DNA of 64,000 nt, taken from positions 9,674 through 73,673 of the forward strand of contig DATBJW010000015.1 in the NCBI GenBank assembly GCA_036556205.1. Direction: 5' to 3'. Of the stretch, positions 2,571 to 48,044 are shown piece by piece. Numbering within the stretch: position 1 is the stretch's first letter; every line of letters starts with the position of its first letter. The notes under the pieces are model-generated. The model saw only the letters and a list, made by a program, of their open reading frames with translations. It had not been told where the DNA came from and searched no databases. This stretch comes from Gemmatimonadota bacterium. Lineage in GTDB: Bacteria > Gemmatimonadota > Gemmatimonadetes > JACCXV01. The translations under genes were made by a program, and so were the position numbers.

Positions 2571-2594
2571 GCCTCGCCTCCCAGCCGCCGACGA

Positions 2595-20082: not shown

Positions 20083-20111
20083 GCGCCGGACAACCCTCAG
20101 CACCGACGCGC

Positions 20112-26860: not shown

Positions 26861-27439
<579 letters not shown>

Positions 27440-27466: not shown

Positions 27467-27961
27467 CTATTCGCGGAACAGGTTGTCGATCTCGTCCTCG
27501 GCCTCACTCGTGAACTCGCCGCCCAGGCCGGAGCGGCGCGTCGCGCTCTCCGACTGGGCGAAGATCTCACCGAAGATCACGTCCAGCTCCTTGACCGCCC
27601 GTTTCACCCGCAGGCGCACGAGCCCGAGCGTGGTGCGGTCGTCGAACAGGACGACCAGGATCACCCGCTTGCGGATGTCGGCCAGGTACATGCTCTCGCG
27701 CTCCCCCTGGTGGTAGAGCGAAGAAAACTCGGTCTCGCCGATCAGTGAGGCCAGATGGTCGTTGGCCGCGAAGTCCGCGGCCGAGAGCGAGGCGAAGGCG
27801 TTCGTGTCGAAACGCGGCTCCTCGCCCGAGAAGGCGATCATCTGGCCGTTCCGATCCACGAGCATCGTCGTGCGGGCGCTCGCCGAGCTCGTGAGCTGGC
27901 TCAGCTGGCGGGCGATCCGCTGGTAGTCGTCCTCGAGGAAGCTCCAGTTCCCGGCGCTCAT
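27467..27961 (-). CDS. mglB: MglB (Roadblock/LC7 domain, GAP of MglA)
   Basis: Trimmed to MSAGNWSF (start 27961), 164 aa. Roadblock-like core (ARTTMLVDRNGQMIAFSG...ASLSAADFAAN...VILVVLFDD) with an acidic C-terminal tail. Lies immediately upstream of mglA, as in the Myxococcus mglBA operon. Confidence 0.8.
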   Translation of the reverse strand: MSAGNWSFLEDDYQRIARQLSQLTSSASARTTMLVDRNGQMIAFSGEEPRFDTNAFASLSAADFAANDHLASLIGETEFSSLYHQGERESMYLADIRKRVILVVLFDDRTTLGLVRLRVKRAVKELDVIFGEIFAQSESATRRSGLGGEFTSEAEDEIDNLFRE

Positions 27962-30900: not shown

Positions 30901-33900
30901 TCAAGCCGGATCGGGGCTTTTCCCAAGCCACAAAAGCACTTCCGCCCCCTGCTCCCAGTTCCGGGCCTCGATCGTACCGCCCCACGACTCCACGATCCGG
31001 CGGGCGATGGCGAGCCCCAGCCCGGTGCCGCGCGTCTTGGTCGAGAAATAGGGCTGGAAGAGCCGCGGCAGGTCGTCGGCCGGGATCCCCGGCCCGCTGT
31101 CGCGGACGCGGACCAGGACCCGTCCCGGGGCCGCGTCGTAGTCCAGCTCCACGCGCACCGTTTCCCGTCCCGGGCTTCCGCCGTCCATCGCCTCGCGCGC
31201 GTTCTCGAACAGGTTCACGAGCACCTTCTTGAGCCCGTCGGCCTCGGCCATGACCGCCGCCGGCCGGCCCCTGACCTCGAGCTCGTAGCGCAGCCCTCCG
31301 CCCTGCTGGGCGTAGAGGTCCACCACCTCGCGCAGCGTGCCCGCGGGCTCCAACGGCTCGGGCGCCCCGCTCACCGCGCCGAAGCGGCTGAACTCGCCGG
31401 CGATGCGCTCGAGGCGGCCGATCTCGGCCAGCACGAGGTCCAGGTTCCGCTGCAGCACCGCGGCGAAGTCCGGCGGCGGTTCCGACTGCAGCCGGCGCAG
31501 GTGCTGGAGGGAGAGCTTGATGGGGGTGAGCGGGTTCTTGAGCTCGTGCGCGACCTGCCGCGCCATCTCTTCCCAGGCCAGCGCGCGCTGCGAGGCCAGG
31601 ACGTCCGAGATGTCCTCGAAGACGATGACCAGCCCGCGGCGCTCGCCGCCCTCGCCGTGGAGCGGGGCGAAGGCGAGGTGCAGGATGCGTCCGCCCTGCG
31701 GACCCGGGAGCCGCACCTCGTCCTCGCGGCGCTGGGCCAGCCTCAGGGCGCGCGCCACGCGCCGCCAGAATTCGGCCGGCGCCAGGTCCGGCGCGCGCTT
31801 CCCGATGGCGTCGGGGGTCAGGCTCAGCAGGTCGCGCGCGGCGTCGTTGGCCAGCTGGAGGCGCCCTTCGCTGTCGAGGGCCACGACCCCCGCCCCGGTG
31901 CTGGAGAGGATGGCCTGGATGCGCTCCTTCTCCGCCAGCAGCTCGCCGCGCGAGACCTGGAGCCCGGCCGCCATCGTGTTGAAGGCCGAGAACAGCCGAC
32001 CGAACTCGTCGCTCCGGTCGGGGTCGCGCAGCCGGTAGGCGAGCTCTCCCGTGGCGATGCGGTCGGAACCTTCCTTGAGTGCCGCGAGCGGGCTCGAGAG
32101 CTGGCGCGACACGAGCCAGCTGAAGAGCCCCAGCGCCAGCAGCGAGAGCGCGAAGAGAACGAACAGGACCTGCAGGAGGTCGCGCATGTCGCGCGAGATG
32201 TGGTCGTCGCGCAGCAGCAGGGGGCTGGCCAGGATGTAGGGCGCTCCGCCTTCCGACCACGGGGTCCTGAGGTAGGCGATCAGCACGTCGCGCCGGCCGA
32301 CCGCGGAGCGCTCGGTGGCCAGCCGCTCGTTGCCGTAGCGCAGGCGCCGGTAGAGGTCGCCCGGCATCCGCCGCGAGAAGAGGTTCGCCTGGAAGATCTC
32401 CGGCCGGTTCGAGCCGGCGACCTCGCCGCCCACGAAGACGATCAGGTCCTGGCCCACCACGCGCGCGGCCTCGGGCAGGATCGCCTCGAGCTCGGCTTCG
32501 CCCCCCGCCTCGAGCCGCGGGCCCAGGTAGGCCATGGCTGTCCGCAGCGACTCCTCGGCCAGCGCCCGCGTGGCGGTCTCGATCTGGTGCCGCGTGGTGT
32601 GAAAGCTGATCCAGGAGTAGACGGCGACGGGAACGGCCACGAAGGCCAGCAGCACGCTGAAGACGCGCCCGCGGAAGCTGGCCAGCGGGTTGCGCCAGCT
32701 CCCCGGCCAGGGGACCGGCGAGGATCCCAGCAAGGCATGGTAGAGGACGAGCAGGGCCAGCGCCGCGCCGAGCGTGGTCAGGCACAAGCTCAGATCGTCG
32801 AGGACGTCGGGCAGGTAGGGGGCGAGCGGCAGCGACATCCAGAGCCGGTCGTCGCCCGCACCCGAGGCCAGCGTGAGCGAGGGCTCCGGCGCGGGCGCCG
32901 CCTCGCCGCGATGCACGGCGAAGAGGTAGGGATCGGTCTCGCCCGAGAAGAACACGTCGCGCAGGAAGTAGCCCGCACTCTCCTCCCCGAGCGCGGGCTC
33001 GAGGGACTCCGCCACGAGGGCCACGGCGTAGCGCGCCTCGCCGTCGGGCGAGCGCAAGGGTGCCGTGGTGAAGAGCAGCGTGCGATCGGTCTCGGTCTGG
33101 ACGCGCGTCACGGCACCCAGCGGAACGCGGAGCGCGGCGCGCGCGATCCGCGGCAGCAGGTCCAGGTCGCGGGGCGGGAGCAGCGAGAAGCGGCTCTCGA
33201 TGGCCCCCGACTCGTCCACGACCACCAGGGCCGAAGGGAACGGCAGGTCGCGCAGCGGGGTGCGGGTCCAGGCCGCGAAGGCCGCCGCCTCGCGTCCCGC
33301 GCCCAGATCCTCGAGCGTGGTCGAGCCGCCGGTCAGCCGCTCGCCCGTGAGCTCCAGGTTGTACTCCAGCCACTGGCTCGACGAGCTGCCCACCTCGACG
33401 AGCCGCGCCTCCATGTACTGGCGCAGAGCCCACACCCGCCCCCCGCCGTGCGCGGTGGTGGCCGCGAGCCCCGCCAGCACGCCCGCCACCACCGCGGGGG
33501 CCAGGATCGAGCGCGTCCAGCCGCGGACCGCGAGCGCGGGCTCGAGCGAGAGTCCGGCCAGCCCGAGGCCTCCGGCCATGAGCGAGCTCCAGAGCGCCGC
33601 CGCCAGCAGCGGGCCCGAGGCGCTGGCGGCCGCGCGCAGCAGGTAGACGGCCGCCGCGACCGAGACGAGCACGGCCAGCCCGCAGGCCCACGGCCAGAGC
33701 CGGGCGGCGAGTGCCGCGCCCGCGCCGCTCCGGTCGGCACGCGCCGCGAGCACCACGAGCGTGGCCGCCGAGACCACGATCGCGGCCGCCGCCGCGGCCA
33801 GAGCGGCGAAGAGAAACGCTCCCTCGGGGGTGGAGTAGAGGTACGGCCTGAAGAGGAGCTGGGTCGACGTGTCGCGGATCAGGATCGCGCCGGCGTGGAG

Positions 33901-35235
33901 CAGACGCCGGTCGGCCAGGATCCCCGCCGCGATCAGGAGCAGCGTGACGACCACCGGGGCGGGGGCCGTGACCCTGCGCAGGGCGCCGCCCTCGGGCGCT
34001 GAGGAGCCCGCGGCGGCGCCGGCCGGCCGCGGCACGGTGCGGAAGGCGTCGAGCGCCAGAACGCAGGCGAAGAGTGCCGTGACGAGCAGGTCGGCGGGCG
34101 AGCTCGCGAAGGGTCCGAGGACGCGCGAGGCGAAGAGGAGCGGCGAGGAGAGCGAGCCGGGCAGCAGCGCCCGCAGCAGGTCGCCGGCGCTGATGAGCCA
34201 GCGCGCGACAACGAGGACCAGGGACTTCCCGGCCAATGCCAGCAGCCAGGCGGCCAGGCCGCCGCGCCTCACCGCCGCACCTGCACCCACTCCACCCTCG
34301 ACGAGGCGCCAGACCTCGCGCAGGAGGAGTGCCAGGGCCACCAGCGCGCAGGCCGCGGCGAGGCGCAGCCAGACGCTGCCGCCCGCCGCCGCGGCCGGCA
34401 GGAGCTCCACCGATCCGACGCGCCGCCCGGCCAGGCGCAGCGGCGCGCTGGGGCCGGCCACGGGTGCCGTGGTCACGCCGGGCGCGACGGGGGCACCGGG
34501 CGCGCCCCCGGAGACACCGCGATCGATGAGCACCCGCACGCCGTGCCGCCGCTCGAGCTCGGCCAGCCAACCCCTGGGCGGCAGCCCGAGCGCTTCGATC
34601 GGCGAGCGGCGCAGCCAGGGATCCTCGAGCGCGATCCCCCAGTCGCGCGACAGGGACCAGAGGACGACGCCGGCGCCGTTGGCATCCACGACGAGCGTCG
34701 CCCGCGACGGCGCGCTCGTGAGCCGCAGGCGGGTCGCGCCCCGCTGCGCGTCCAGCGTCTCGCCATACCACGCGACGAGCTCGCCCGTGGGCCCGAAGAG
34801 CTTGACGCCGCGCCCGGCCAGCGGCCGCTCGCGGTCGAGCCGGGCCAGCGCGGCGAAGGCGCCCCTGGGGTTGGCCGGCGAGACCTCGGCGCCCAGGCCG
34901 CGCACGACGGCGCCCAGGAGGGCCGCGTCCTCGCCGAGCCGCTGCTCGAGGGAGCCCGCGATGCGGGCCGCCCGGTCGGACGGCCGGTCGCTCCCGCCGC
35001 CGACGACGGGCAACAGGTGGGTGAAGAGGAGCAGCGCCGCCACGACCGCGAGCGCGCGGCAGAGACGGCCCGAGCCCGAGTCGCCGCGCCAGCCGAGGGC
35101 CGCCAGCGGGATCGCGAGGAGAGCCAGTACGAGGGTCTCGGGCGCCGGATCCGCGAAGGCGGGTACCAGCGCCAGCACCGCCCCGGCGCGCGTCAGGCGC
35201 CGGTCCCGCAGCCCGGCAAGGACCCGCTTCAGCAT
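30901..35235 (-). CDS. Giant polytopic sensor histidine kinase (NtrY-like HAMP-PAS-HisKA-HATPase C-terminus)
   Basis: 1444 aa. About 13 hydrophobic segments and two or three large extracytoplasmic loops fill the first roughly 950 aa. Then HAMP (SSPLAALKEGSDRIATGELAYRL), PAS (ILSSTGAGVVALDSEGRLQLAN), H-box HELKNPLTPIKLSLQHL, N-box NLFENAREAM, G1 VRDSGPGIP and G2 GTGLGLAIARRIV. Confidence 0.9.
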   Translation of the reverse strand: MLKRVLAGLRDRRLTRAGAVLALVPAFADPAPETLVLALLAIPLAALGWRGDSGSGRLCRALAVVAALLLFTHLLPVVGGGSDRPSDRAARIAGSLEQRLGEDAALLGAVVRGLGAEVSPANPRGAFAALARLDRERPLAGRGVKLFGPTGELVAWYGETLDAQRGATRLRLTSAPSRATLVVDANGAGVVLWSLSRDWGIALEDPWLRRSPIEALGLPPRGWLAELERRHGVRVLIDRGVSGGAPGAPVAPGVTTAPVAGPSAPLRLAGRRVGSVELLPAAAAGGSVWLRLAAACALVALALLLREVWRLVEGGVGAGAAVRRGGLAAWLLALAGKSLVLVVARWLISAGDLLRALLPGSLSSPLLFASRVLGPFASSPADLLVTALFACVLALDAFRTVPRPAGAAAGSSAPEGGALRRVTAPAPVVVTLLLIAAGILADRRLLHAGAILIRDTSTQLLFRPYLYSTPEGAFLFAALAAAAAAIVVSAATLVVLAARADRSGAGAALAARLWPWACGLAVLVSVAAAVYLLRAAASASGPLLAAALWSSLMAGGLGLAGLSLEPALAVRGWTRSILAPAVVAGVLAGLAATTAHGGGRVWALRQYMEARLVEVGSSSSQWLEYNLELTGERLTGGSTTLEDLGAGREAAAFAAWTRTPLRDLPFPSALVVVDESGAIESRFSLLPPRDLDLLPRIARAALRVPLGAVTRVQTETDRTLLFTTAPLRSPDGEARYAVALVAESLEPALGEESAGYFLRDVFFSGETDPYLFAVHRGEAAPAPEPSLTLASGAGDDRLWMSLPLAPYLPDVLDDLSLCLTTLGAALALLVLYHALLGSSPVPWPGSWRNPLASFRGRVFSVLLAFVAVPVAVYSWISFHTTRHQIETATRALAEESLRTAMAYLGPRLEAGGEAELEAILPEAARVVGQDLIVFVGGEVAGSNRPEIFQANLFSRRMPGDLYRRLRYGNERLATERSAVGRRDVLIAYLRTPWSEGGAPYILASPLLLRDDHISRDMRDLLQVLFVLFALSLLALGLFSWLVSRQLSSPLAALKEGSDRIATGELAYRLRDPDRSDEFGRLFSAFNTMAAGLQVSRGELLAEKERIQAILSSTGAGVVALDSEGRLQLANDAARDLLSLTPDAIGKRAPDLAPAEFWRRVARALRLAQRREDEVRLPGPQGGRILHLAFAPLHGEGGERRGLVIVFEDISDVLASQRALAWEEMARQVAHELKNPLTPIKLSLQHLRRLQSEPPPDFAAVLQRNLDLVLAEIGRLERIAGEFSRFGAVSGAPEPLEPAGTLREVVDLYAQQGGGLRYELEVRGRPAAVMAEADGLKKVLVNLFENAREAMDGGSPGRETVRVELDYDAAPGRVLVRVRDSGPGIPADDLPRLFQPYFSTKTRGTGLGLAIARRIVESWGGTIEARNWEQGAEVLLWLGKSPDPA

Positions 35236-35284
35236 CGCTCGCGCCCGGGTCGTCCCGCTCGCACGTCGGAGAGACCGCGCCCCG

Positions 35285-36475
35285 TCAGGAGTCTCCGCGG
35301 GCGGTGCCCGGCCCGGCCGAGGGCGGCGAATCCGCCGCGCCTTCGTCGTCCGCCGCGCCCGCTGCCCCGTTTCCCCCCGAGCGTCCGGGCCGGCCCGCCT
35401 CGGCCGCCCCGCGCGCCGGCGGGAACTCGTTGAAGTAGAAGTTGCCCTGGATCACGAGCTTGGGATCCGGGAACCCGGTCGGCAGAGGCTCGAAGTCGGC
35501 CGACCCGGAGACGGCGTCCGGCGCCACGTGACGCAGCTCGAGCACGCCCTGGTGGCCGACGATCGCGACCGACTCCAGCTGCCCGCTGGGCAGGATCGTG
35601 AAGCGCACCTGGGTCGTCCAGGCGGCGATCCCGTACCAGAAGGCGCTGGGGAGTATCGTCCACGTGTAGTCCTCGATCTGCCGCTTGAGCCGCGTCATGT
35701 AAGGCGCGTAGTCCCAGGCGTACGTGCTCAAGCTGAAGTCCTCGTCGAAGCGCGCGCGCGTCAGGCGGTTGTCCACCTGCGGCAGGCCCCGGCGACCCGT
35801 GCCGGGGGCGCCCGCGTTCCGCGGCGGCGCGCTGGCGGGCGGCAGGGTCACTTCGTGGCGCGGGAGGGCGAGGCGACTGTCCCCGAGCGATGAGCCCGTC
35901 CCCACCGGGGGCGCCTGAGCGAGCCGGCTCGGATCCGCTCCCTGGGCCAGCTCGCCCGAGCTGCCGGGCTCGACACCGCTCGCCGCGTCCGGCTGGTCGG
36001 CGGCCCCCGGCGCCTCTGCCTGCGCGCCCCCGGCTGCCGGCGGGCGAGCCTCCTGCGAGGCCCTGGCGGGCGGCTGGGCGCCGGGAGCGGCCCGCTCACG
36101 CGGACCGTCGTCGCGGCCGCCCTCCCCGGGTGTCGGGTTCGGCAGGCTCGTCTCGCCGCGGTTGAACGGGTCGCCTTCGGGAAGGTCGCGCGGGCCGCGG
36201 TCGGCCGCCCGCGAGTCGCGCTCGGAGACCAGGTTCGTGGGCTCCTCGGGCGCCCGCTCCGGGGCGCCGGAGGCGTCCACCAGCATCCTGGGCGCCTCCG
36301 CGGGGTTCAGGAGCCGCACGTTGACCGGCTCGGGGTTCGGGAAGAGCTCGGCCAGCCTCGCCGTCGCGCCCTCGTCCCTGGGCGCGGCGAACCCCGTGAC
36401 CACGAGCACCAGGATCAGCGCGTGGAGCAGGAGCGAGAAGACGAAGGGCGAGATGCGGCCGTCGCGTCGGAGCAT
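35285..36475 (-). CDS. TonB-like protein (N-terminal anchor, Pro/Ala/Gly-rich linker, TonB_C-like domain)
   Basis: N-terminus ISPFVFSLLLHALILVLVV, then a long low-complexity proline-rich spacer. The C-terminus TTQVRFTILPSGQLESVAIVGHQGVLELRHVAPDAVSGSADFEPLP resembles a TonB C-terminal fold. Confidence 0.5.
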   Translation of the reverse strand: MLRRDGRISPFVFSLLLHALILVLVVTGFAAPRDEGATARLAELFPNPEPVNVRLLNPAEAPRMLVDASGAPERAPEEPTNLVSERDSRAADRGPRDLPEGDPFNRGETSLPNPTPGEGGRDDGPRERAAPGAQPPARASQEARPPAAGGAQAEAPGAADQPDAASGVEPGSSGELAQGADPSRLAQAPPVGTGSSLGDSRLALPRHEVTLPPASAPPRNAGAPGTGRRGLPQVDNRLTRARFDEDFSLSTYAWDYAPYMTRLKRQIEDYTWTILPSAFWYGIAAWTTQVRFTILPSGQLESVAIVGHQGVLELRHVAPDAVSGSADFEPLPTGFPDPKLVIQGNFYFNEFPPARGAAEAGRPGRSGGNGAAGAADDEGAADSPPSAGPGTARGDS

Positions 36476-36656
36476 GACCCGCGGGGGTGAAGGGCCCCTG
36501 CCGGGCGCGCGGGCGCGCGCGAAAGGGGCCTCCCGGGCAATATAGCGCCCGGGGGACCCGTCAGCTTCCGTACCGAGGCTGGGGTCGCCGGTTCCCTCGG
36601 CGCGCGTCTCGTCGGGGAACCGGCGGAGGATCGAAGGTCGGGAAGGGCGCGGCCGC

Positions 36657-38138
36657 TCAGAACCCTCCGGCGTGGGCCTCTTCGGCCTTGCCGGGCGCGT
36701 TGCCCTCCACGAAGTAGCTCTGGCAGGCGCGATCCAGCAGGGTCTTCGACAGCACGGCCGGGACGCCGTAGAAGTTGGCGTAGTCCACGAGCTGGTCCAT
36801 CAGGTCGCGCGGGTGGCAGGAGCGTGGCTGGAGGCCCATCTCGCCGTAGTAGCGCTTGTACAGGTAGGTCACCGCCTCGGGGACGAACTTGATCGCCTTC
36901 GCGCGGCAGACGTTGAACAGGATCTGGCTGAACTCTTCGCGGGTCGGGTCGTCGGCCTTGACCTTGTAGCGGATGCGACGGAAGAAGGCCTCGTCCACCA
37001 GCTCGTCGGGGTCCAGGTTCGTCGCGAAGATGAGCAGGCAGTCGAAGGGCACCGGGAACTTCTTCCCGGTGTGCAGCGTGAGGTAGTCCACGCGCTTCTC
37101 GAGCGGCACGATCCAGCGGTTCAGCAGGTCGACCGGCTGCACCAGCTGGCGCCCGAAGTCGTCCAGGATGAACACGCCCCCGTTCGACTTCACCTGGAAG
37201 GGCGCCTCGTAGAACTTGGCGATCGGGTTGTAGCGCAGGTCCAGCATGTTCAGAGTGAGCTCGCCCCCGGTGAAGACCGTGGGCCGTCGGGTGTGGCACC
37301 AGCGCGGGTCGGTGGACTCGCGGCCGCCCTTCCAGAGCCCCGTGGACGGCACCTCGCCTTCCTCGGGGTCGCTCTCCTGGTGGTAGACGGGATCGAAGAC
37401 CTTGATGATCTGGCCTCCCACCTCGATCGCGTACGGCACGTAGATCTCGCCCCCCAGGAGGCCCGCGATCGTCTCCGCCACGAGCGTCTTCCCGTTCCCG
37501 GCCGGCCCGTAGAGGAACAGCGACTTCCCGGAGTTCACCGCCGGGCCGAGCATCATCAGGAAGCGGTTCGAGAGCACCAGGTGCGAGAACCCGCGCCGCA
37601 GGTCGTCCCACGAGATGCGGGTCGTGTTCACGGTCTGGCGGCGCACCCAATCCGCGTAGACGTCCAGCGGCACCGGCGCGGGCCCCACGTACTGGCAGCG
37701 ATCCAGGGCCTCGCGCGCGCGATCGCGCCCGTGGCCGGTGATCGCGTAGCGGTAGAAGGCGCGACCGTTTCCGTCCACGGTCTTCACCTCCACCTCCTTC
37801 TCACGCTTCAGGTGCTCGAGCAGCGCGTCCACGACGGTGAACGGGAGTGCCATCTGCTGCGACGCCTGCAGGGCGTTCAGGTCGCCCTGGGAATAGAAGG
37901 TCTTGATCAAGAGCTCGAGGACCAGATCCTCGGGAAGCCCGGTCTCCTCGAACGTGCGCGGGGCCTGCGGGAAGTCCGCCGCCTCGATCGCGAAGTCGAC
38001 GGCCGTAGGCAGCGGAGGGTCGCCGAGAACGGGACCCGCGTCGAAGTCCGAGGCGGACGCGGCAGGGGGCCGTTCGGATGTCGGAGCGGAGGGGCGGCCG
38101 GCAACGGCGGCCAGCTGACGGACGGCTTCGGGGGTCAT
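36657..38138 (-). CDS. AAA+ ATPase (MoxR/AAA_5-like core with N-terminal helical domain), translationally coupled to the Tad TPR gene
   Basis: Trimmed to MTPEAVRQ (start 38138, ATGA overlap with the upstream gene). Walker A LYGPAGNGKTLVAE, Walker B VFILDDFGRQ, then LLNRWIVPLEKRVDYLTLHTGKKFPVPFDCLLIFATNLDP..LVDEAFFRRIRYKV. No hydrophobic segments. Confidence 0.8.
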   Translation of the reverse strand: MTPEAVRQLAAVAGRPSAPTSERPPAASASDFDAGPVLGDPPLPTAVDFAIEAADFPQAPRTFEETGLPEDLVLELLIKTFYSQGDLNALQASQQMALPFTVVDALLEHLKREKEVEVKTVDGNGRAFYRYAITGHGRDRAREALDRCQYVGPAPVPLDVYADWVRRQTVNTTRISWDDLRRGFSHLVLSNRFLMMLGPAVNSGKSLFLYGPAGNGKTLVAETIAGLLGGEIYVPYAIEVGGQIIKVFDPVYHQESDPEEGEVPSTGLWKGGRESTDPRWCHTRRPTVFTGGELTLNMLDLRYNPIAKFYEAPFQVKSNGGVFILDDFGRQLVQPVDLLNRWIVPLEKRVDYLTLHTGKKFPVPFDCLLIFATNLDPDELVDEAFFRRIRYKVKADDPTREEFSQILFNVCRAKAIKFVPEAVTYLYKRYYGEMGLQPRSCHPRDLMDQLVDYANFYGVPAVLSKTLLDRACQSYFVEGNAPGKAEEAHAGGF

Positions 38139-39316
38139 CACGGACCTTGGGGTCGGAGGGTGGACGGAGCGGCGGCCGGCGGCGACTCGCGCCGCGCGCC
38201 CACCTTGGCGGGCTGCGCCGAGTGCGGGACCGCGGCGCCGCTCTCGGGCGCGGCCTCGCCGGAGGCGCCGGCGGGCACGGTCGGTTCGGGCTCGACGGCC
38301 GGGGCGGAAAGCGCTTGCAGCGCGCGCTCGTCGGAGAGGCGGCGGCGGGCGTCCCGCAGGTTGCGGGCGATCTCGCGGTCGCCGGGGGCTATGACGGCGG
38401 CCTTCTCGAAGGCCAGCGCCTCGGCTTCGGTCTCGCCACGGAAGCGGTGCACGAGGCCCAGGTTGTTCCAGGCCTGCGCTTCGGGGCCCGCCCGGCGGAA
38501 GGCGGCCAGGGCGCTGTCGGGGAGGCCCTGATAGCCGGCCGCCAGGCCCAGGTTGTTGAGCAGGGCCGGCTCGCCGGGCGCCAGGGAGAGGCCGCGCGCG
38601 AACTCGTCGGCGGCCTGCGCGTAGCGCTCCTGGAGCAGCAGGTTCCAGCCCAGGTTGTTGGCGTAGTCCCAGCGCCGGGGATCGAGCTCCACGGCCTCGC
38701 GCAGGGCGTCCTCGGCCTCGGGGTAGCGCTTCAGGAGGTCCAGGGCGATCCCGCGGTAGCTCCAGGCCAGCGCGTCGCCGGGCGTCACGCGGCACGCCTC
38801 TTCCAGGTACGGCAGGCCGAGCTCCGGCGCCCCCGCGTCCACCCACAGGCGGCCCATCTCGCGGCCGATCTCGGGGTTGCGGGGGTCGAGAGAGAGCGCC
38901 TCCTCGTAGTGGCGCAGGGCCAGGTCGTAGATGCGCTCGCGGTGGTAGGCGCGGGCGAGGGCGAGCTGGGCCGCGCCGCTATGCGGGTCGCCCGCCGCTT
39001 GCGAACGCGCGTCGGTGACCGCAGGCGTGTCGGCGCCGCCCGACTGGGCGGGGCGGATCTTCACCTTGCCGTCTTCGTCCTTGAGCTCGACCAGCTGCTC
39101 GTCCGTGAGGCCCGGCTCCGCCGACGAGACGGCCACGGCCGCGCTCGAATCGGCGGGCCCGGCCGCCGGGGTCTCGGCGGGGGCCGCGTTCGCTGGGCGC
39201 TTTCCTTCGGGGAGGGGGGTAATGAAGGGAGAGCGCTCCAGCTCCACCCGCTTCGTGCACCCGACGGCCAATGCCGCGCCGATCACGAGAGCCATCCTGA
39301 CTTTGCGCTGCATCAT
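38138..39316 (-). CDS. TPR-repeat lipoprotein (TadD-like position)
   Basis: Trimmed to MMQRKVRMALVIGAALAVGC (lipobox). Several TPR units (ALARAYHRERIYDLALRHYEEALSLDPRNPE..., AWSYRGIALDLLKRYPEAEDALREAVELDP...). Follows tadC. Confidence 0.65.
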   Translation of the reverse strand: MMQRKVRMALVIGAALAVGCTKRVELERSPFITPLPEGKRPANAAPAETPAAGPADSSAAVAVSSAEPGLTDEQLVELKDEDGKVKIRPAQSGGADTPAVTDARSQAAGDPHSGAAQLALARAYHRERIYDLALRHYEEALSLDPRNPEIGREMGRLWVDAGAPELGLPYLEEACRVTPGDALAWSYRGIALDLLKRYPEAEDALREAVELDPRRWDYANNLGWNLLLQERYAQAADEFARGLSLAPGEPALLNNLGLAAGYQGLPDSALAAFRRAGPEAQAWNNLGLVHRFRGETEAEALAFEKAAVIAPGDREIARNLRDARRRLSDERALQALSAPAVEPEPTVPAGASGEAAPESGAAVPHSAQPAKVGARRESPPAAAPSTLRPQGP

Positions 39317-39363
39317 GCCCCCCCGAGCAAGATGAGTTGACGCCCGACGTCCGCGCCCGCGGT

Positions 39364-40299
39364 CTACTTCACGACGCCCGACAGCTGCTCCAGGATGTGC
39401 AGGATCGCCGGGCCCAGGATGACCACGAACATGGCCGGGAAGATGAAGATCACGAGCGGGAACACGAGCTTGATCGTGGTCTTGGCGGCGGCCTCCTCGG
39501 CGCGCTGCCGGCGCTTCGTGCGCAGCGTGTCGGAGTGGACCCGCAGCGACTGGGCGATGCTGGTTCCGAAGCGATCGGTCTGGATCAGCATGGCCACCAG
39601 CGCCTGCAGATCCTCCACACCCGTGCGCTCGGACAGGTGCCGCAGCGCGTCGGGCCGCGACGTGCCGGCGCGCATCTCCAGGTTCACGAGCCCGAACTCC
39701 TCGGCGATGGGCGGGCACGCGTGCGACATCTCTTCGGCCACGCGGATCAGCGCCTGGTTCAGGCCCAGGCCGGCCTCGACGCAGATCACGAGCAGGTCGA
39801 GCGCGTCGGCGAGGCCCAGCCGGATCGCCTCCTGGCGCTTGCGGATGCGGCTCTTGAGCAGGAAGCGCGGCAGGAAGTACCCGAGCCCGGCGCTGACCAG
39901 GAGCAGCGGCGTCGCGCGCAGCACGGCGGTATGGAGCGCCACACCCATCAGCACGACCAGCGCCGGCATCAGGAGCGCTCCCAGGATGCGCGCGCCGTAG
40001 TAGAGCGCTGGACCCTCCTCCTGGCGGATGCCGGCCCGCACCAGGGCCTTGCGCGTCTCGCCCAGGTCCTTGCGCGTGCTCGCCGCGCGCTTGCCCAGCG
40101 TGCGCAGCATGCCCTCGAGCTTGTCGCGCTGGGCGCGCCGGCGGTGGACGGCCGCCACGGACTCGGTGAAGGGCCCCAGGTTCTGGATCTCGGCCAGCCG
40201 GCCGCGCAGCGCCGTGGGACGGGGGCTCAGCGAGATGACCACGCCGTAGGCGAGGGTCGCGACGGTGGCGAAGACAAGAAAGGCGATCAGGACGAGCAT
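39364..40299 (-). CDS. tadC: Tad pilus platform protein TadC (T2SS F family)
   Basis: 311 aa. N-terminal TM, a cytoplasmic GspF-like domain, and C-terminal TMs (KLVFPLVIFIFPAMFVVILGPA). Confidence 0.85.
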   Translation of the reverse strand: MLVLIAFLVFATVATLAYGVVISLSPRPTALRGRLAEIQNLGPFTESVAAVHRRRAQRDKLEGMLRTLGKRAASTRKDLGETRKALVRAGIRQEEGPALYYGARILGALLMPALVVLMGVALHTAVLRATPLLLVSAGLGYFLPRFLLKSRIRKRQEAIRLGLADALDLLVICVEAGLGLNQALIRVAEEMSHACPPIAEEFGLVNLEMRAGTSRPDALRHLSERTGVEDLQALVAMLIQTDRFGTSIAQSLRVHSDTLRTKRRQRAEEAAAKTTIKLVFPLVIFIFPAMFVVILGPAILHILEQLSGVVK

Positions 40300-40308
40300 G
40301 CGCGCTCC

Positions 40309-41285
40309 TCAGACCTTGATGCGAATGATCTTGCGGATGATGAAGAACCCCGTGATCTGCATGATCGCCGCCCCCGCGATCATCACGCGCCCGATCTCCT
40401 TCCGGAACAGGATCATCATGTACTCGTGGTTCATGGCCGCGATGACCACGCCCAACAGGATCGGCAGGCAGCCCAGCAGGTAGCCCGTGAGCCGGCCCTG
40501 GGCGGTGTAGACTCGCACCTGGCGCAGGATCTTGAACCGCTCGCGGATCGTGTAGGCGATCTTGTCCAGGATCTCGGCCAGGTTGCCGCCGACCTCGCGC
40601 TGGATCAGCACGGCGGTGACGAAGATGCGCAGGTCCACCAGGTCGATGCGCTCCATCAGGTTCAGGAGCGAGTCCTTGAGCGCCAGACCGAACTTCTGCT
40701 CCTCGAAGCAGCGCCGGAACTCCTCGCCGACGGGGTCCGGGCACTCCTCCCCCACCAGCTGGAAGCCGGTCGAGAACGCGTGCCCCGCGCGGATGGCGCG
40801 GGAGAGCAGGTCGATGGCCTCGGCGAAGTTGGCCTCGAAGGCCTCGATGCGCTTCTTCTTGCGCCGCAGCAGCCACATGTAGGGCAGGACGCCGGCCCCG
40901 GCCGCCGCCACCATCGGGAAGATGACCGGCAGGTGCAGGAGCAGCGTCACCAGGCAGGCGACCGTCGCCAGCGCCAGCGACAGCAGGTAGAAGGACCCCA
41001 CCTTCATCCGCACCGCGCCCTGCTCCATCAGGATTCGCAGGTCTTCGACCTTGGGCACCGCCTTGAGGATCAGGCGCATGAGCGGCACGTCGGAGAGCTG
41101 CTCCTCGCGCAGGATCTTCACGAGCCCCTCTTCCTCCATGAAGCTCTCGAAGGAGAGGTTGCGCATGCGGTCGGCGACCTTGCTCCGCATCGCCTTCTCC
41201 TTGCGCGCCTCGCGCAATCCGAAGAGGACGTAGACCAGACAGGCCATGAACAGCCCGCCCAGGAGCGGCACCAGCCAGGTCGTCA

Positions 41286-41286
<1 letters not shown>
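40309..41286 (-). CDS. tadB: Tad pilus platform protein TadB (T2SS F family)
   Basis: 325 aa with the same architecture. Immediately downstream of tadA with a 1-nt overlap. Confidence 0.85.
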
Positions 41287-42894
<1,608 letters not shown>

Positions 42895-42905
<11 letters not shown>

Positions 42906-44190
42906 GGGCGGCTACCTCCTCGCGCTCGCGCGGCTCGACCGCGGCCTTCGCGCGGCGGCTGAAGAGCTTGCCGAGCACGCTCGGCTTGGCCCCGTTGGCG
43001 GGTGCCGCGGCCCCGTCCCCGGCTGCCCGCGCCAGGCCCACGTCGCGCGCCAGGGCCTCGCCCAGGGACGTGACCTCCCGGGCGATCGGCGCGTCGGAAA
43101 CGGCGGCGAAGGGCTCGCCCGTGTTGATGGAGTGGATGACGGTGTTGTAGTCGTTCGACAGGACGTGAAAGAGGGGGAAGCTCAGGGTCTGCTCGATCTG
43201 GTCCAGCTTGATCGGCCCCCGCGTCGAGTAGCGGTTCACGATCAGCTTGATGGACTCCTTGGCGTAGCCCAGGCGGTCCAGCACGTGGAAGCAACGCTGC
43301 GTGTTGCGCAGGCTGGGCAGGTCCACGTTCGCGACCAGGCAGATGCGGTCGGCCTGGTCGAAGGCCGAGAGCGTGTAGTCGTAGAACGCGTTCGAGGTGT
43401 CCACGACCACGCAGTCGAACTTGGACTTGAGGAAGTTGAAGATCTGCCGGATCTGCTCGGGCGTGAGGGTCTCGCTGCGCTCCGGATTGGCGGGCGCGGC
43501 GAGGAGCTGGATCCCGGAGGGGTGCTCGACCAGGAAGCTCATCAGCAGGTTCTCGTCGATCCGGTGCAGGTTCTTCGAGAGGTCGAGGATGTTGTACTTG
43601 GGCTTGAGGCCCAGGAACAGCGCCACGTCGCCCATCTCGAGGTCCAGGTCCACCAGCACCACGCGCTTGCCGCTCTTCCTGTGCAGGGCCACGGCGGTAT
43701 TCGCGGCGACCATGGTGGCGCCGCTCCCGCCCTTGGTGCTGAAGAAGGCCAGGATCTGGCCCGCCGAGCTGCGCGCCGCCGGGACCGCGATCTTGGTCGC
43801 GGCCCGGTCCAGCGCCTCGTTCAGCGCGGCCTTGTCGAACGGCAGCGTGAAGTACTCCGAGATCCCGGCCCGCATGGCCTGCAGCAGCAGCTCCTGCGAT
43901 GTCGAGCTGCCCACGCCGAAGACGCGCCCGCCGTGCCCGGCCGACCGGTCGGCCAGCATGTGCGCCAGCTCGAGCGCGCTCTTGCGGTCAGAATCGAGGT
44001 CGAGGAAGACGACGCCGGGCTTGAGGACCTTGATGTCCTCGAGGTACCCGGCGTCGATCATCGTGAAGGGATGCGTGAGCTCGACGTCGAGCCGCACGTC
44101 GGAACGGTCGGCCAGGTGCTCGCGCACCGCCTCCCGCAACTCACGGCGCGGGCTGATGACGACGGCGGACACCTGGAGCGACTCGTCCAT
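42895..44190 (-). CDS. tadZ: TadZ/CpaE (receiver-like N-domain + ParA/MinD-type ATPase)
   Basis: Deviant Walker [17 protein letters not shown], plus [11 protein letters not shown]. The N-terminal roughly 120 aa are CheY-like. Confidence 0.85.
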
Positions 44191-44229
44191 TGCGCGGCTC
44201 CCGTCGAAAGGGTCGGGGTCGGCGGCGGC

Positions 44230-45594
44230 CTAGGGCCGGGCGCCGTCGGTGTGCCCCATCTTGCCCTGGAAGCCCTCCGTGTTGCCCTTGAAGTTCTCGT
44301 TGAACTGCGGCAGCTCGGGCACCGGCGACTCCCCGCTCACGATGTAGGGGGTCACGAGCACGACCAGCTCGGTCTGGCGCAGGCGGAACTGCCGGCTCTT
44401 GAACAGCCAGCCCAGGATCGGGATGTCGCCCAGGACGGGCAGCTTGTCGATGACCTCGGCCTGCTCGTTCCCGATCAGACCTGCGATCGAGAAGGTCTGG
44501 CCGTCGCGCAGCTCGACCGTGGTGGAGGCGCGACGCGTGTTCAGGGCCGGGATCACGAAGCCCGCGAAGTTCAGACCGTTCGCGAAGTCGAGCTGGCTCA
44601 CCTCGGGGGCGACCCGCAGGTTGATGAGCCCGTTGCCGACCAGCAGCGGCGTGAAGTTCAGCCGGATACCGAACTCCTTGAACTCGATCGTGGTCGTGAA
44701 CGTGGTCCCCGACGGCTGCACGATCGGGTACGGGAACTCGCCGCCCACGAGGAAGCTCGCCGAGTCGCCGTTGGCCGCGACCAGGTTGGGCTCGGCCAGC
44801 ACCTGCAGGAGGCCCCTCTCCGAGAGCGCGCGGATGAACAGGCCCACGGCGGCGTCGGGCTCGAAGAAGTAGAGGTTCAGAGCGTCCGAGAAGGCCTGGT
44901 CCGGGCCCGGGGGGTTGTTCAGGAAGTTGCCGCCCGTGCCGCCCGGCAGGGCCATGCCGATGTGACCCTCGGTGTCGCCGCGCAGGTTGAACGGATCGAT
45001 GCGCGTGGCCTTGAGGCCCCACTCCTGGAGCTCCTGGCGGTTGACCTCGGCGATTCGCACCTGGAGCAGGATCTGGCGCGAGTCCGTGACCTCGAAGGCA
45101 TTGATGACCCGGGTCGAGTCGGCCGCGTAGGTGCGGGCCAGCTGCATCGCCCTCGAGACGGTGTAGGGATCGCTCACCGGCCCCGACAGCACGACCAGGT
45201 CGCGGTCCACCTGCACCTGGATCGGCTGGCCGGGGAACATCTCGGCGATGCGCGCCTGCAGGAGCTGGGCGTCGTTGCTCACCACGACGTCGTAGATGCG
45301 GTTCGAGCCCCCGCCCGAGAGGATCAGGCTGGTCACGCCGGGCTTCTTGCCGTTCACCAGGACCTCGCGCGGCGTGAGCACGACCGCGTCGAGGACCTCG
45401 GGGTTGCCCACCGAGACCCGGGCCAGGCCCTGGGGGAAGGACACGATCGAGGACTTGCCGGCGGTGATCTCGAGCGTCTGCCCAATGGGCTGCTCGACGA
45501 TGGCGGGCTCCTGCGACCGGAGCCCCGCCGGCGCGAGGGCGAGCAGCAGGGCGACGAGCGCCCCGCGGACGGGTTTCGCGAACCTGCGCTGCAT
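44230..45594 (-). CDS. cpaC: Tad secretin CpaC/RcpA
   Basis: Start trimmed to MQRRFAKPVRGALVALLLALAP (signal peptide). BON-like and secretin N domains. C-terminal secretin core LPVLGDIPILGWLFKS...ELVVLVTP. Confidence 0.9.
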   Translation of the reverse strand: MQRRFAKPVRGALVALLLALAPAGLRSQEPAIVEQPIGQTLEITAGKSSIVSFPQGLARVSVGNPEVLDAVVLTPREVLVNGKKPGVTSLILSGGGSNRIYDVVVSNDAQLLQARIAEMFPGQPIQVQVDRDLVVLSGPVSDPYTVSRAMQLARTYAADSTRVINAFEVTDSRQILLQVRIAEVNRQELQEWGLKATRIDPFNLRGDTEGHIGMALPGGTGGNFLNNPPGPDQAFSDALNLYFFEPDAAVGLFIRALSERGLLQVLAEPNLVAANGDSASFLVGGEFPYPIVQPSGTTFTTTIEFKEFGIRLNFTPLLVGNGLINLRVAPEVSQLDFANGLNFAGFVIPALNTRRASTTVELRDGQTFSIAGLIGNEQAEVIDKLPVLGDIPILGWLFKSRQFRLRQTELVVLVTPYIVSGESPVPELPQFNENFKGNTEGFQGKMGHTDGARP

Positions 45595-45669
45595 GCGAGA
45601 GGTCCTTTCCAAGGCTAGAGAGTCAGCTTCCAGAAACTCCCCCACCGGCGCCCGACCGTGCGCGCCGGA

Positions 45670-46503
45670 TCAGAACGTCTCCTTCGTCTTCTTGTCGCCC
45701 AGGATGACCTCGACCTGCGTCGAGGGTCGCGGGGCGACGACCCGCCGCGGCGCGTTCGCCGCCGGGGCCGGCCGGCTGGGCTCGCTGACGAGCTCGGCGG
45801 CCTGGATGCCCTCCGTCGAAACCGAGTCCATATCCATCGCGTTGCGCAGCGCCATCTGGATCTTCCCCTCGGTCGACGCGAGCGTGAGCTTCTCGGACTC
45901 CTCGGGCGTCACCAGCAGCGTGATCACGGTCACGGTCTGCGGCTTGCCTTCCGCGTCCTTCTCGATCTTCTGGCCGGAGGCCAGCACCTTCACGTTCTGC
46001 AGGATCAAACGGGTCGTGGCGGGCTTCTGCGAGTCTCCTTCCGTCTCCGGGTTGAGGGTGACCAGCACGTCGACGCGCGTGCCGGGGAGCACGAAGCCGG
46101 CGACGCCGACGACCTCGTCGACTTTGACGCTGACCGCCCGCTTGCCTTCGGGGATCACGACCGGCAGCCCGCCGCCGGCGCCTTCCGGGGCGAGCTTGGA
46201 GGAGAGGATCGGCTCGTTGGCGGCCACGTCCACGATCAGGCCGCGTCCGACCACGTCCTTCTCGGTGGCGAAGTAGCCGTCAGGCAGGGTGCCCGTGGTC
46301 CAGGCCACCGTCTTGACGTGCCCTTCGGTGAGGAACGTGCCCAGCGGAATCTGCGCGGCAGCCACGACCACGGTTCCAGTTGGGGTTTGCTCCGCGGCGA
46401 CGGCCGGCAGCGGGCGCTTCAAGTAGTTGAAGGTCAGCATGCTGGCCGCAAGGCCGGTGATGCCCGCTACGACGAGGGCGACCAGGAGCTTCTTGCGGTT
46501 CAT
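45670..46503 (-). CDS. cpaB: Flp pilus assembly protein CpaB/RcpC
   Basis: N-terminal anchor MNRKKLLVALVVAGITGLAA, a SAF-like domain and a beta-rich C-terminal region. Confidence 0.85.
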   Translation of the reverse strand: MNRKKLLVALVVAGITGLAASMLTFNYLKRPLPAVAAEQTPTGTVVVAAAQIPLGTFLTEGHVKTVAWTTGTLPDGYFATEKDVVGRGLIVDVAANEPILSSKLAPEGAGGGLPVVIPEGKRAVSVKVDEVVGVAGFVLPGTRVDVLVTLNPETEGDSQKPATTRLILQNVKVLASGQKIEKDAEGKPQTVTVITLLVTPEESEKLTLASTEGKIQMALRNAMDMDSVSTEGIQAAELVSEPSRPAPAANAPRRVVAPRPSTQVEVILGDKKTKETF

Positions 46504-46518
46504 CTGAAGGTGCCCTCC

Positions 46519-47046
46519 TCAGAGGTTGCCGAGATGGGACGCGAAGGTGAACGCCATCCCGCCCGCGATCGCCAGCCCGTAGGGCAGCACGATCCCGCGG
46601 CTCGATCCCAGGCTCACTGCCGGACAGGGAATGAGCCCGCGCCCACGCCAGTGCAGGAACAGGGTCCACAGGTTGTGAGCGGTCATGGCCCAGGCCCGGC
46701 GCAAAACGATACATGCCAGAGCCATGCCGCCGCCCACGAGCGCCGTGGCGACGAGCAGCTGCAGGCCGGCCTCCGGGCCGAGGAGCGCCCCACAGCCGGC
46801 CAAGAGCTTCACGTCGCCCCCGCCCATCGCCTTGAGGCGGAAGAGGATCAGCGCCGGAAAACCGGCGGCGAAGGCGCCCACCACACCCACCGCGAGGTCC
46901 GCAGGGCCGTGCAGCAGCGTGCGCAGCGCCAGGCCCGCGGCCAGGGTCCCGAGGGTCAGCCAGTTCGGGATCCGGCGCGAGCGCAGGTCGAGGCCGGCGG
47001 CCAGGGTGGCGGCGAGCAGCGCGATCCAGAGCAGCAGAGGGTCCAC
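46519..47046 (-). CDS. cpaA: Prepilin peptidase CpaA/TadV (A24 family)
   Basis: 175 aa and polytopic. LDLRSRRIPNWL and GGGDVKLLAG carry the two catalytic Asp motifs. Confidence 0.85.
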   Translation of the reverse strand: MDPLLLWIALLAATLAAGLDLRSRRIPNWLTLGTLAAGLALRTLLHGPADLAVGVVGAFAAGFPALILFRLKAMGGGDVKLLAGCGALLGPEAGLQLLVATALVGGGMALACIVLRRAWAMTAHNLWTLFLHWRGRGLIPCPAVSLGSSRGIVLPYGLAIAGGMAFTFASHLGNL

Positions 47047-47070
47047 GTGAGGCGGTCCGGTGAACGGACG

Positions 47071-47115
47071 GAGAAAAACGTCGCGGCCGGTCCGCGGCAG
47101 GACCGGCTCGCGACG
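47071..47115 (-). terminator. Intrinsic terminator/attenuator after the flp genes
   Basis: Minus strand reads CGTCGCG(A)GCCGGTCC-tgccgc-GGACCGGCCGCGACG followed by TTTTTC, located 25 nt after the flp stop. Confidence 0.6.
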
Positions 47116-47139
47116 GGAAGTGAGTTCGACGGCGGCGAG

Positions 47140-47310
47140 CTACGGCGTGACGAGCTTGCCCGTGATGTCGTTGAAGACCGTCTGAACCTGGCCGCCCAGC
47201 GCGGCCACAGCGGTGATCACCACGAGAGCGATCAGGGCGATCAGGAGGGCGTACTCCGCCAGGTCCTGGCCCTCGTCGTCGCGCAGAAGGTTCATGAAAA
47301 GCTGCAGCAT
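47140..47310 (-). CDS. flp: Flp-family type IVb pilin (56 aa)
   Basis: Below the track size cutoff, so translated manually: MLQLFMNLLRDDEGQDLAEYALLIALIALVVITAVAALGGQVQTVFNDITGKLVTP. G/QDLAEY is the Flp prepilin cleavage motif (G/XXXXEY). RBS AGGAGG lies 6 nt upstream. Confidence 0.88.
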   Translation of the reverse strand: MLQLFMNLLRDDEGQDLAEYALLIALIALVVITAVAALGGQVQTVFNDITGKLVTP

Positions 47311-47345
47311 CGGTCGTCCTCCTGGGGGAGGTTGGGGTTGAACGT

Positions 47346-47522
47346 TCAGCTCCCGAACGGAAGCGTGGCCACGATGTTGTTGTAGAATCCGACCAGTCCG
47401 CCGCCGAACGCGGCGACTGCGCCGATAACGGCGATGGCGATCAGCCCGATCAGCAACGCGTACTCGGCCAGGTCCTGGCCAGACTCGTCTGCCACGAGGT
47501 TCCCAGCCTGCGGGCCAGCCAT
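47346..47522 (-). CDS. flp: Flp-family type IVb pilin (58 aa)
   Basis: Trimmed from track ORF 47346..47705: MAGPQAGNLVADESGQDLAEYALLIGLIAIAVIGAVAAFGGGLVGFYNNIVATLPFGS. Same G/QDLAEY motif. RBS GGAGG upstream. Confidence 0.88.
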   Translation of the reverse strand: MAGPQAGNLVADESGQDLAEYALLIGLIAIAVIGAVAAFGGGLVGFYNNIVATLPFGS

Positions 47523-47634
47523 GGGACCTCCGGAGCGAGGTTGAATCTGAACAGCCGGCCCCACGGAGCTCATCCGTTCTGTGCGAGCGAAAAGCGACTG
47601 GATGCGGCGGCGGTTCATCTCGGCAGGGTCCAGA

Positions 47635-47650
47635 AGCAACGGGCGTGCCC
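47635..47650 (-). promoter_or_regulatory. Sigma-54-type (-24/-12) promoter upstream of flp genes
   Basis: Minus strand reads ctGGGCACGcccgTTGCTtc versus consensus TGGCACG-N4-TTGCW. GG and GC are correctly spaced, with only the first T mismatched. Lies about 110 nt upstream of the first flp ATG. Confidence 0.45.
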
Positions 47651-48010: not shown

Positions 48011-48044
48011 AAAAAAGGCCCGCCGGGCGGATGCCCGACGGGCC
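48011..48044 (-). terminator. Rho-independent terminator of the regulator gene
   Basis: Minus strand reads GGCCCGTCGGGC-atcc-GCCCGGCGGGCC followed by TTTTTT. The stem is 12 bp with one G-U pair. Confidence 0.8.

Follow-up and report, generated by a model that had tools for sequence, protein, structure and literature searches.

An AAA+ ATPase gene at the end of a Gemmatimonadota tad pilus operon, and the absence of TadE/TadF/TadG genes from the surrounding 64 kb

The tad operon and its terminal AAA+ gene

We analysed a stretch of 64,000 nucleotides (nt) from contig DATBJW010000015.1 ("the window" throughout), which has a G+C content of 67-77% and whose proteins have their nearest relatives in Gemmatimonadota metagenome-assembled genomes. 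Judged by its gene content, the locus of interest is a Gemmatimonadota operon for a Tad/Flp pilus (type IVc). Codon-bias gene calling combined with Pfam and NCBIfam searches gave, on the minus strand, the order flp-flp-cpaA-cpaB-cpaC-tadZ-tadA-tadB-tadC-TPR lipoprotein-AAA+-TonB-like-kinase (Table 1)—the same order that an earlier reading of this DNA (the original prediction) had proposed. Most of the parts by which Tad/Flp type IVc systems are recognised were found here (Flp pilins, TadA, TadB with TadC, TadZ, a secretin, RcpC/CpaB and a TadV/CpaA peptidase), and one further part, TadE/TadF and TadG encoded with the system, was not found within the 64-kb window.

The core of the operon appears sound. 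All eleven core genes (11/11) are intact, their coding signal is strong (G+C at third codon positions, 0.87-0.97 where measured), and the junctions are tight and free of gene remnants, as between cpaA and cpaB (15 nt) and between cpaC and tadZ (39 nt). Both Flp pilins carry G/QDLAEY, a class-III prepilin cleavage signal of the G/XXXXEY type (motif scan and direct reading; the slash marks the cleavage site). Read by eye, the receiver-like domain of TadZ is missing the acidic pair and the conserved lysine, and the N-terminus of the TPR protein ends in AVGC, which is lipobox-like. TadA gave E = 3.6e-103 and 345 bits with the NCBIfam model for TadA-family ATPases, just under the 373-bit cut-off, and the top NCBIfam match of the TPR protein, PilW, likewise stayed under its cut-off.

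TadE, TadF, TadG and vWA genes are absent from the whole 64-kb window, which upholds the earlier statement that no TadE/TadF/TadG-like gene lies at 30.9-47.5 kb and extends it by motif scan, lineage models and Pfam. Specifically, a six-frame scan of all 64 kb for E(F/Y)A(L/I/V/M) plus a hydrophobic helix returned the two flp genes and no further matches. Lineage hidden Markov models (HMMs) for TadE, TadG-like and DUF192 proteins were built on sequences from related loci, and every six-frame open reading frame (ORF) was searched with filters off: matches to the TadE model were limited to the two flp N-termini and were weak (E = 0.003-0.01), the TadG-like model had no match at E <= 1, and the DUF192 model gave non-significant scores (best E = 0.039). 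The Pfam families TadE, Tad, Tad_C and VWA were found neither in the individually scanned called genes, nor in eight genes rescanned without masking families, nor in 67 non-gene ORFs of at least 60 amino acids (aa) at 30-50.5 kb; for the twelve remaining genes, at 1-15.5 kb, the best 25 of 39 Pfam families were considered, and in that stretch the evidence for absence comes from the lineage HMMs and the motif scan. Most relatives have three genes that the window lacks: TadE, which separates cpaA from cpaB; TadG, which separates cpaC from tadZ; and DUF192, which precedes the AAA+ gene.

The TPR and AAA+ genes meet in the string GTGATGA, where the TPR gene stops with TGA at 38140-38138 and the AAA+ gene starts either at the ATG or at GTG 38141, for an overlap of 1 or 4 nt. 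The original prediction had called these genes "ATGA-coupled"; the overlap is real, but the string is not literally ATGA.

No Pfam or NCBIfam model attains its cut-off on the AAA+ protein, which belongs to a family of thousands of homologues (at least 1405 clusters at 50% identity, E <= 1e-30) that has no Pfam model. Its AlphaFold2 (AF2) model is confident (predicted local distance difference test, pLDDT, 82) and comprises a disordered N-terminus of ~55 residues, a winged helix at ~60-150 and an AAA+ module with beta-hairpin inserts. The best Foldseek matches in the PDB are 8p49 (an uncharacterised Pyrococcus hexamer), the LonB ATPase domain, RuvB, BchI and NtrC1, with TM-scores on the query of at most 0.44 and the match confined to the AAA+ domain; by sequence, PDB entries of classic AAA proteins were matched in their Walker A and sensor regions alone. 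The protein has no hydrophobic segment and is, as predicted from this, soluble and cytoplasmic. In some family members (P0171, P0168, P0181) an N-terminal FHA or HDOD domain replaces the disordered N-terminus; these fusions suggest control by phospho-threonine or second-messenger-type signalling, and they point to the AAA+ protein as a signal-regulated ATPase.

Three assignments to known groups were tried and rejected. As a sigma-54 enhancer-binding protein, it scores 16.4 bits with Sigma54_activat (cut-off 20.2), and the family consensus has no GAFTGA. As a member of the MoxR/Mg-chelatase/ComM group (COG0606), it reaches 16.1 bits with Mg_chelatase (cut-off 20.3), and its fold matches to BchI and ComM are weak (TM-score ~0.3). 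The ExeA/GspA or MshM type was set aside with no AAA_22 or peptidoglycan-binding match (E <= 0.01) and no membrane segment.

Table 1. Features of the window, in the reading direction of the minus strand for the operon, followed by its flanks (positions are those of the 64-kb window).
Feature	Position	Strand	Evidence and remarks
Receiver-less sigma-54 enhancer-binding-protein-like gene	48087-49040	minus	Sigma54_activat positions 5-109 of 168, AAA_lid_14, HTH_8
Strong terminator	48017-48044	minus	12-bp stem; ends the regulator-like gene upstream of flp
Sigma-54-type promoter-like site	47635-47650	minus	GGGCACGCCCGTTGCT (-24 GG/-12 GC); first flp ATG lies 113 nt downstream
flp pilin 1 of 2, 58 aa	47346-47522	minus	Flp_Fap E = 1.8e-6, 28.1 bits (cut-off 32.2); ESG/QDLAEYALL
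flp pilin 2 of 2, 56 aa	47140-47310	minus	Flp_Fap E = 2.2e-8, above cut-off; DEG/QDLAEYALL
Weak terminator-like hairpin	47082-47096		3' of the second flp gene
cpaA/tadV prepilin peptidase, 175 aa	46519-47046	minus	Peptidase_A24 E = 9e-19, sole Pfam match
cpaB/rcpC periplasmic alignment protein	45670-46503	minus	RcpC E = 5.9e-33, and SAF; one N-terminal hydrophobic segment
cpaC/rcpA outer-membrane secretin	44230-45594	minus	Secretin E = 1.4e-46, T2SS-T3SS_pil_N, BON
tadZ/cpaE, receiver-like N-terminus and ParA/MinD-type ATPase	42895-44190	minus	CbiA/AAA_31 E ~4e-10; Response_reg E = 3e-4
tadA/cpaF pilus motor ATPase	41286-42905	minus	T2SSE E = 2e-65
tadB platform protein	40309-41286	minus	T2SSF E = 6.7e-18
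tadC platform protein	39364-40299	minus	T2SSF E = 1.9e-22
TPR lipoprotein, TadD-like candidate secretin pilotin	38138-39316	minus	TPR_1, TPR_2, TPR_16 and others
Cytoplasmic AAA+ ATPase (predicted), N-terminal winged helix, 494 aa from GTG	36657-38138/38141	minus	start probably ATG 38138
Strong GC-rich hairpin	36590-36625	minus	CCGGUUCCC...GGGAACCGG; ~20 nt after the AAA+ stop, no U-tract
TonB-like protein, 396 aa	35285-36475	minus	TonB_C E = 0.0025, 18.7 bits (Pfam cut-off 24.6)
Sensor histidine kinase, 1444 aa	30901-35235	minus	HAMP, PAS, HisKA 2.3e-7, HATPase_c 4.2e-23
mglB-like Roadblock/LC7 gene	27467-27961	minus	directly downstream of dnaX-ybaB-recR, with mglA
mglA-like small GTPase gene	26861-27439	minus	Arf-family match
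Large gene, 570 aa	59123-60835	minus	good coding signal
Large gene, 551 aa	60907-62562	minus	good coding signal
Large gene, >447 aa	62657-64000	minus	good coding signal

Linkage of the AAA+ gene to tad in related genomes

One genome per GTDB species was scanned with the AAA+ protein, which gave 80 loci (cited by their L numbers) whose genes were mapped by BLAST, clustering and HMMs on codon-bias gene calls. Loci with enough upstream sequence entered the linkage count, and linkage meant tadB or tadC within three genes upstream of the AAA+ gene. On this count, the AAA+ gene ends a tad operon in 26 of 26 genome-collection loci of Gemmatimonadota and Acidobacteriota (Gemmatimonadota, labelled Gemm, 15/15; Longimicrobia 2/2; Benthicola 1/1; Acidobacteriota 8/8), or in 28/28 when one metagenome contig, represented twice (L001 and L002), is added. 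In linked loci the gene directly before it is tadC, DUF192 or TPR, frequently with a 4-nt overlap, and its product is 46-54% identical to the window copy across Gemmatimonadota and Acidobacteriota loci and 81-96% identical in close relatives.

The commonest layout is flp-cpaA-TadE-cpaB-cpaC-TadG-tadZ-tadA-tadB-tadC-DUF192-AAA+. Most AAA+-carrying related operons also hold a TadE gene (PF07811) and a TadG-like gene (PF13400 with Tad_C), and Pfam confirms these assignments (PF07811 at E = 3e-17 for TadE; PF13400 with Tad_C for the TadG-like proteins) together with DUF192. TadE, TadG-like and AAA+ genes share one operon in at least nine loci (L007, L008, L023, L026, L030, L035, L040, L042, L045). 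Elsewhere the minor-pilin genes have other positions: TadE/TadG lie directly 3' of the AAA+ gene in L012 and L033, and L007 has, besides its internal TadE/TadG set, a second flp-TadE-TadG cluster 8 kb downstream (19503-21284). Placement of TadE/TadG is fluid in the Gemmatimonadota/Acidobacteriota lineage: the two genes may belong to the operon, follow the AAA+ gene, form a second cluster, or be missing altogether within 10 kb. As the AAA+ gene is found with TadE/TadG in most relatives, it accompanies these genes and does not replace them.

Set against the Gemmatimonadota and Acidobacteriota tad operons as a group (L003, L006-L012, L018-L045, L071, L073), the window agrees in core order and in its terminal AAA+ gene. 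Most of those operons, however, have TadE, TadG-like and DUF192 genes and no TPR gene before the AAA+ gene, whereas in the window the TPR gene is present and the other three are absent; among the operons compared, only L001 and L003 share TPR-AAA+ without TadE/G, and their layout (tadC-DUF192-TPR-AAA+) is the one most like the window. The TPR gene has the same position in L001/L003 and in the close relatives L088 and L089, and most other relatives have no TPR gene there.

In Gemmatimonadota and Acidobacteriota the AAA+ gene is a conserved partner of tad operons that has apparently gone undescribed, and from synteny and junction overlap we infer a Tad-related role for it in these two phyla. In the literature searched we found no AAA+ or DUF192 partner of tad loci and no Tad study in Gemmatimonadota.

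Other genes recur around the linked AAA+ genes, and many do not. On the 3' side the neighbours vary: a 219-aa membrane protein in many Gemmatimonadota, J-domain, PAP2 and PEMT-like genes, large membrane proteins and genes on the opposite strand. In 28 tad-linked loci (L006-L045 and others, e.g., L033 9423-9929) a DUF192 (PF02643) gene either separates tadC from the AAA+ gene or comes next after the latter; there is no DUF192 gene in the window, and no paper tying DUF192 to Tad was found. Across three phyla, the gene immediately 3' of the AAA+ gene repeatedly encodes a large polytopic membrane protein of ~490 aa, from one family that matches nothing in Pfam (L018 14932-16416, L023 12155-13576, L034 9498-10961, L036 12034-13422, L043 13560-14323, L060 6482-8029, L073 11518-11877; also L074 5948-7489, where its gene stands between tadC and the AAA+ gene). 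This family, also missing from the window, occurs mostly in loci without local TadE/TadG; the protein resembles a GT-C-type glycosyltransferase and could be a pilin-modifying enzyme.

Genes flanking the operon

The two genes that follow the AAA+ gene have a much narrower distribution. The TonB-like protein shows the layout of TonB as known from TonB-ExbB-ExbD—an N-terminal membrane anchor (residues 8-26, the sole hydrophobic segment), a Pro/Ala/Gly-rich spacer and a conserved C-terminal domain—so that the label given in the original prediction fits as to architecture, but its TonB_C score is below threshold (Table 1). An AF2 model of the C-terminal domain, made from a 3-sequence alignment, was unusable (pLDDT 35), and a word-based search found only two homologues. 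No ExbB or ExbD gene was found beside it or among the called genes of the window, within the best Pfam families listed. The kinase has ~12 hydrophobic segments ahead of its HAMP-PAS-HisKA-HATPase_c series and is, by this domain content, a two-component sensor histidine kinase; its top NCBIfam match, AtoS, lies far under the cut-off, and no response regulator gene adjoins it.

Following the AAA+ gene, the TonB-like and kinase genes occur in one Gemmatimonadota subclade only (L004, L007, L088, L089 and one JGI contig), with L009 having the kinase alone. The kinase itself is present after the AAA+ gene only in L004, L007, L009, L089 and the JGI contig; the short contig L088 breaks off in a gene fragment of 134 aa, which lies 181 nt beyond the AAA+ gene, at the position of the window's TonB-like gene. 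The AAA+ proteins of these relatives are 96% (L088), 83-84% (L089 and the JGI contig), 81% (L004), 54% (L007) and 53% (L009) identical to that of the window. L007 has the order AAA+, J-domain-like, CHRD, TonB-like, ExbB, a 139-aa ExbD-sized gene, kinase, and its TonB-like orthologue is 50% identical to the window protein; with that orthologue beside ExbB and an ExbD-sized gene, the window gene looks like an ordinary TonB.

Between the AAA+ stop and the TonB-like gene lies a gap of 181 nt with the strong hairpin of Table 1 and, deeper in the gap, a TATATT string; these could be a terminator and a promoter that part the TonB-like gene from the tad operon. Taken together, the TonB-like and kinase genes are probably subclade-specific neighbours in a separate transcription unit, outside the Tad machine. 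Where the original prediction looked for conserved linkage of the whole tail to tad in relatives, the AAA+ gene has it (26/26), but the TonB-like and kinase genes do not extend beyond this one subclade. In L007 the kinase is flanked on both sides by pilus genes, the second flp-TadE-TadG cluster lying directly downstream, and a regulatory link between kinase and Tad is possible in the L007 subclade.

Upstream of flp there are two candidate regulatory features. The sigma-54-type promoter-like site (Table 1) is the sole match with at most one mismatch in the window, where 0.8 would be expected, i.e., chance; its position and strand fit, and the flp upstream regions of relatives yielded no such site. 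We offer it tentatively, as a lead only. The sigma-54 activator-like gene beyond it encodes a product with no GAFTGA and with the Walker B string LFVNGV where LFLDEI is expected (by eye). Apparently degenerate, it is a candidate regulator of flp and may be an activator turned into another kind of regulator.

The downstream flank of the kinase holds dnaX, ybaB, recR, mglB and mglA, and the rest of the scanned window is housekeeping except for the three genes at 59-64 kb, which are consecutive and have no Pfam match at E <= 0.001. The mglA/mglB-like pair lies a few kb from the pilus operon, and its placement after dnaX-ybaB-recR recurs in relative L004. The MglA/MglB polarity module is best known from Myxococcus.

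Readings of the locus and their meaning

With the Tad systems of Aggregatibacter actinomycetemcomitans, Caulobacter crescentus (Cpa) and Pseudomonas aeruginosa, the window shares the core set in a Caulobacter-like order, including the G/XXXXEY Flp, the short A24 peptidase, the atypical-receiver TadZ, the split TadB/TadC and a TPR lipoprotein that is a candidate for the TadD part. It differs from them in having no TadE, TadF or TadG in 64 kb and no RcpB/CpaD that we could see, and its extra 3'-coupled AAA+ gene matches none in the tad loci described in the literature searched. The Kil system of Myxococcus xanthus, with core and pilin/minor-pilin genes spread over several loci, offers a precedent for a core without local minor pilins; it differs in that its cluster II still has one TadEFG-like set, its function is predation, and no AAA+ partner of the window family has been reported for it. 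Outside the kil loci, Myxococcus carries a further three Tip clusters of TadEFG-like genes (PMC12075869), and the MacSyFinder Tad model permits multi-locus systems (PMC6668835); on these precedents minor pilins encoded elsewhere in the genome become plausible here. According to a review by Pelicic, minor pilins are present in all known type IV filaments (PMC10191384).

We consider it probable that this is an ordinary, working Tad operon with its minor pilins elsewhere and a lineage-typical, cytoplasmic AAA+ partner, the TonB-like and kinase genes being mere neighbours. By homology, CpaA would cleave the two Flp prepilins, and TadA with the TadB/TadC platform would polymerise Flp at a site set by TadZ; the pilus would then pass CpaB and the CpaC secretin, for which the TPR lipoprotein would act as pilotin. 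Priming pilins of the TadE/TadG type would be supplied from another locus of the genome. The AAA+ protein, presumably co-translated with the Tad proteins, would be no substitute for minor pilins and may be a cytoplasmic ATPase that responds to signals and remodels or regulates the machine or its expression.

Several observations weigh against the operon being of this ordinary kind with an AAA+ partner. That the minor pilins are encoded elsewhere is assumed, not seen, and no TadE/TadG lies within 10 kb on either side (or up to the contig end, if nearer) in six further loci (L001/L003, L018, L034, L043 and L073); the Tad system may be one truly without minor pilins. AAA+ proteins ~50% identical to that of the window occur in Chloroflexota and Nitrospirota, where they are tad-adjacent in 0/29 and 0/6 loci and have recJ, ligA-like, GT2, GDPD, ABC-transporter and purU genes as neighbours. 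The neighbour-joining tree of the AAA+ proteins follows taxonomy, which argues for vertical inheritance, and together with the tad-free homologues this means that the basic job of the AAA+ protein may be unrelated to pili. Finally, a terminator scan 3' of the AAA+ gene detected no U-tract-bearing intrinsic terminator, and read-through into the TonB-like and kinase genes is therefore possible.

A bolder role for the AAA+ protein deserves to be kept in mind as a minority possibility. The winged-helix (wHTH) AAA+ protein might be an unrecognised Tad component or regulator in Gemmatimonadota and Acidobacteriota, a second ATPase that responds to signals and either remodels the cytoplasmic complex of TadZ, TadA and TadB/TadC or switches tad expression, and which, with the TPR pilotin, might permit a system with no local TadE/TadG.

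At the other extreme, the AAA+ gene could be a vertically inherited housekeeping gene whose place after tad reflects conserved gene order and no pilus role, which we judge rather unlikely. Its spread at ~50% identity over at least four phyla, its taxonomic tree, its non-tad neighbours in Chloroflexota and Nitrospirota and the sheer breadth of the family all favour such a gene. Yet adjacency to tad outlasts rearrangement, with TPR, DUF192, TadE/G and the downstream genes all varying around it, and the 4-nt overlap with the preceding tad-operon gene is frequent. Partial tad links also exist outside the two phyla: in L044 (Chloroflexi; 1063-4063) an orphan tadA whose product shares 55% identity with the window TadA lies 287 nt past the AAA+ gene, moaD/moaE-like genes come next, and the contig has no tadB or tadC; in L074 (Nitrospirota) a tadC lies 9 kb upstream of the AAA+ gene.

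Decay of the locus, in which loss of TadE, TadG and DUF192 would have left a cell that is no longer piliated, is improbable. Three genes are indeed missing relative to most relatives, but the eleven core genes are intact, with strong coding signal and tight, remnant-free junctions, and the tadB-tadC-TPR-AAA+ segment (in part with the TonB-like and kinase genes too) recurs in several relatives.

Slightly more doubtful still is what the original prediction had put forward: a minor-pilin-free Tad variant whose AAA+, TonB-like and kinase genes functionally replace TadE/F/G as an "energy-transducing" and signalling set. The empty 64 kb speaks for it, as do the TPR-AAA+-TonB-like-kinase order kept in close relatives (83-96% AAA+ identity) and the shared orientation of the tail genes with no U-tract terminator between them. 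However, replacement does not survive the comparison with relatives, where the AAA+ gene coexists with TadE and TadG in most operons, most AAA+-carrying tad loci are without the TonB-like and kinase genes, and one locus (L007) holds AAA+, TonB-like, ExbB, an ExbD-sized gene, kinase, TadE and TadG all together. Moreover, a cytoplasmic ATPase and a kinase are physically unable to stand in for tip pilins, and "energy-transducing" suits neither a soluble, cytoplasmic AAA+ protein, as predicted here, nor what looks like an ordinary TonB. The pattern that the prediction itself had named as contrary to it—TadE/G adjacent in relatives, the tail genes variable—is what we see for the TonB-like and kinase genes (in L007), but not for the AAA+ gene.

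Other type IV filament loci likewise have an ATPase gene beside a TPR or TonB-like gene. The Exe pair consists of an AAA ATPase (ExeA) and a TonB-like protein (ExeB), and mshM, an ATPase gene, adjoins mshN. TadD, for its part, is homologous to MshN (PMC6668835). That the AAA+ and TonB-like proteins form such an ExeA/ExeB (GspA/GspB) or MshM/MshN-type module, helping the secretin across peptidoglycan, is nevertheless very improbable: the TPR, AAA+ and TonB-like genes are consecutive in the window, but the ATPase is not of the AAA_22 type and has no membrane or peptidoglycan-binding part, its fold matches are LonB, RuvB and BchI-type domains, and the TonB-like partner, which most loci do not have, is in L007 a member of a set with ExbB.

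The variable positions of TadE/TadG in this lineage warn against calling Tad systems incomplete from a single locus. The linkage to tad draws attention to a protein family that Pfam does not model and that comprises at least 1405 clusters at 50% identity; if this adjacency is inert, the locus is a plain, ordinary Tad operon. Described Tad pili use a single bifunctional motor, CpaF/TadA. A conserved, unannotated second ATPase gene at the end of the tad operon in two abundant soil phyla would be a candidate for the control of pilus extension, retraction or placement.

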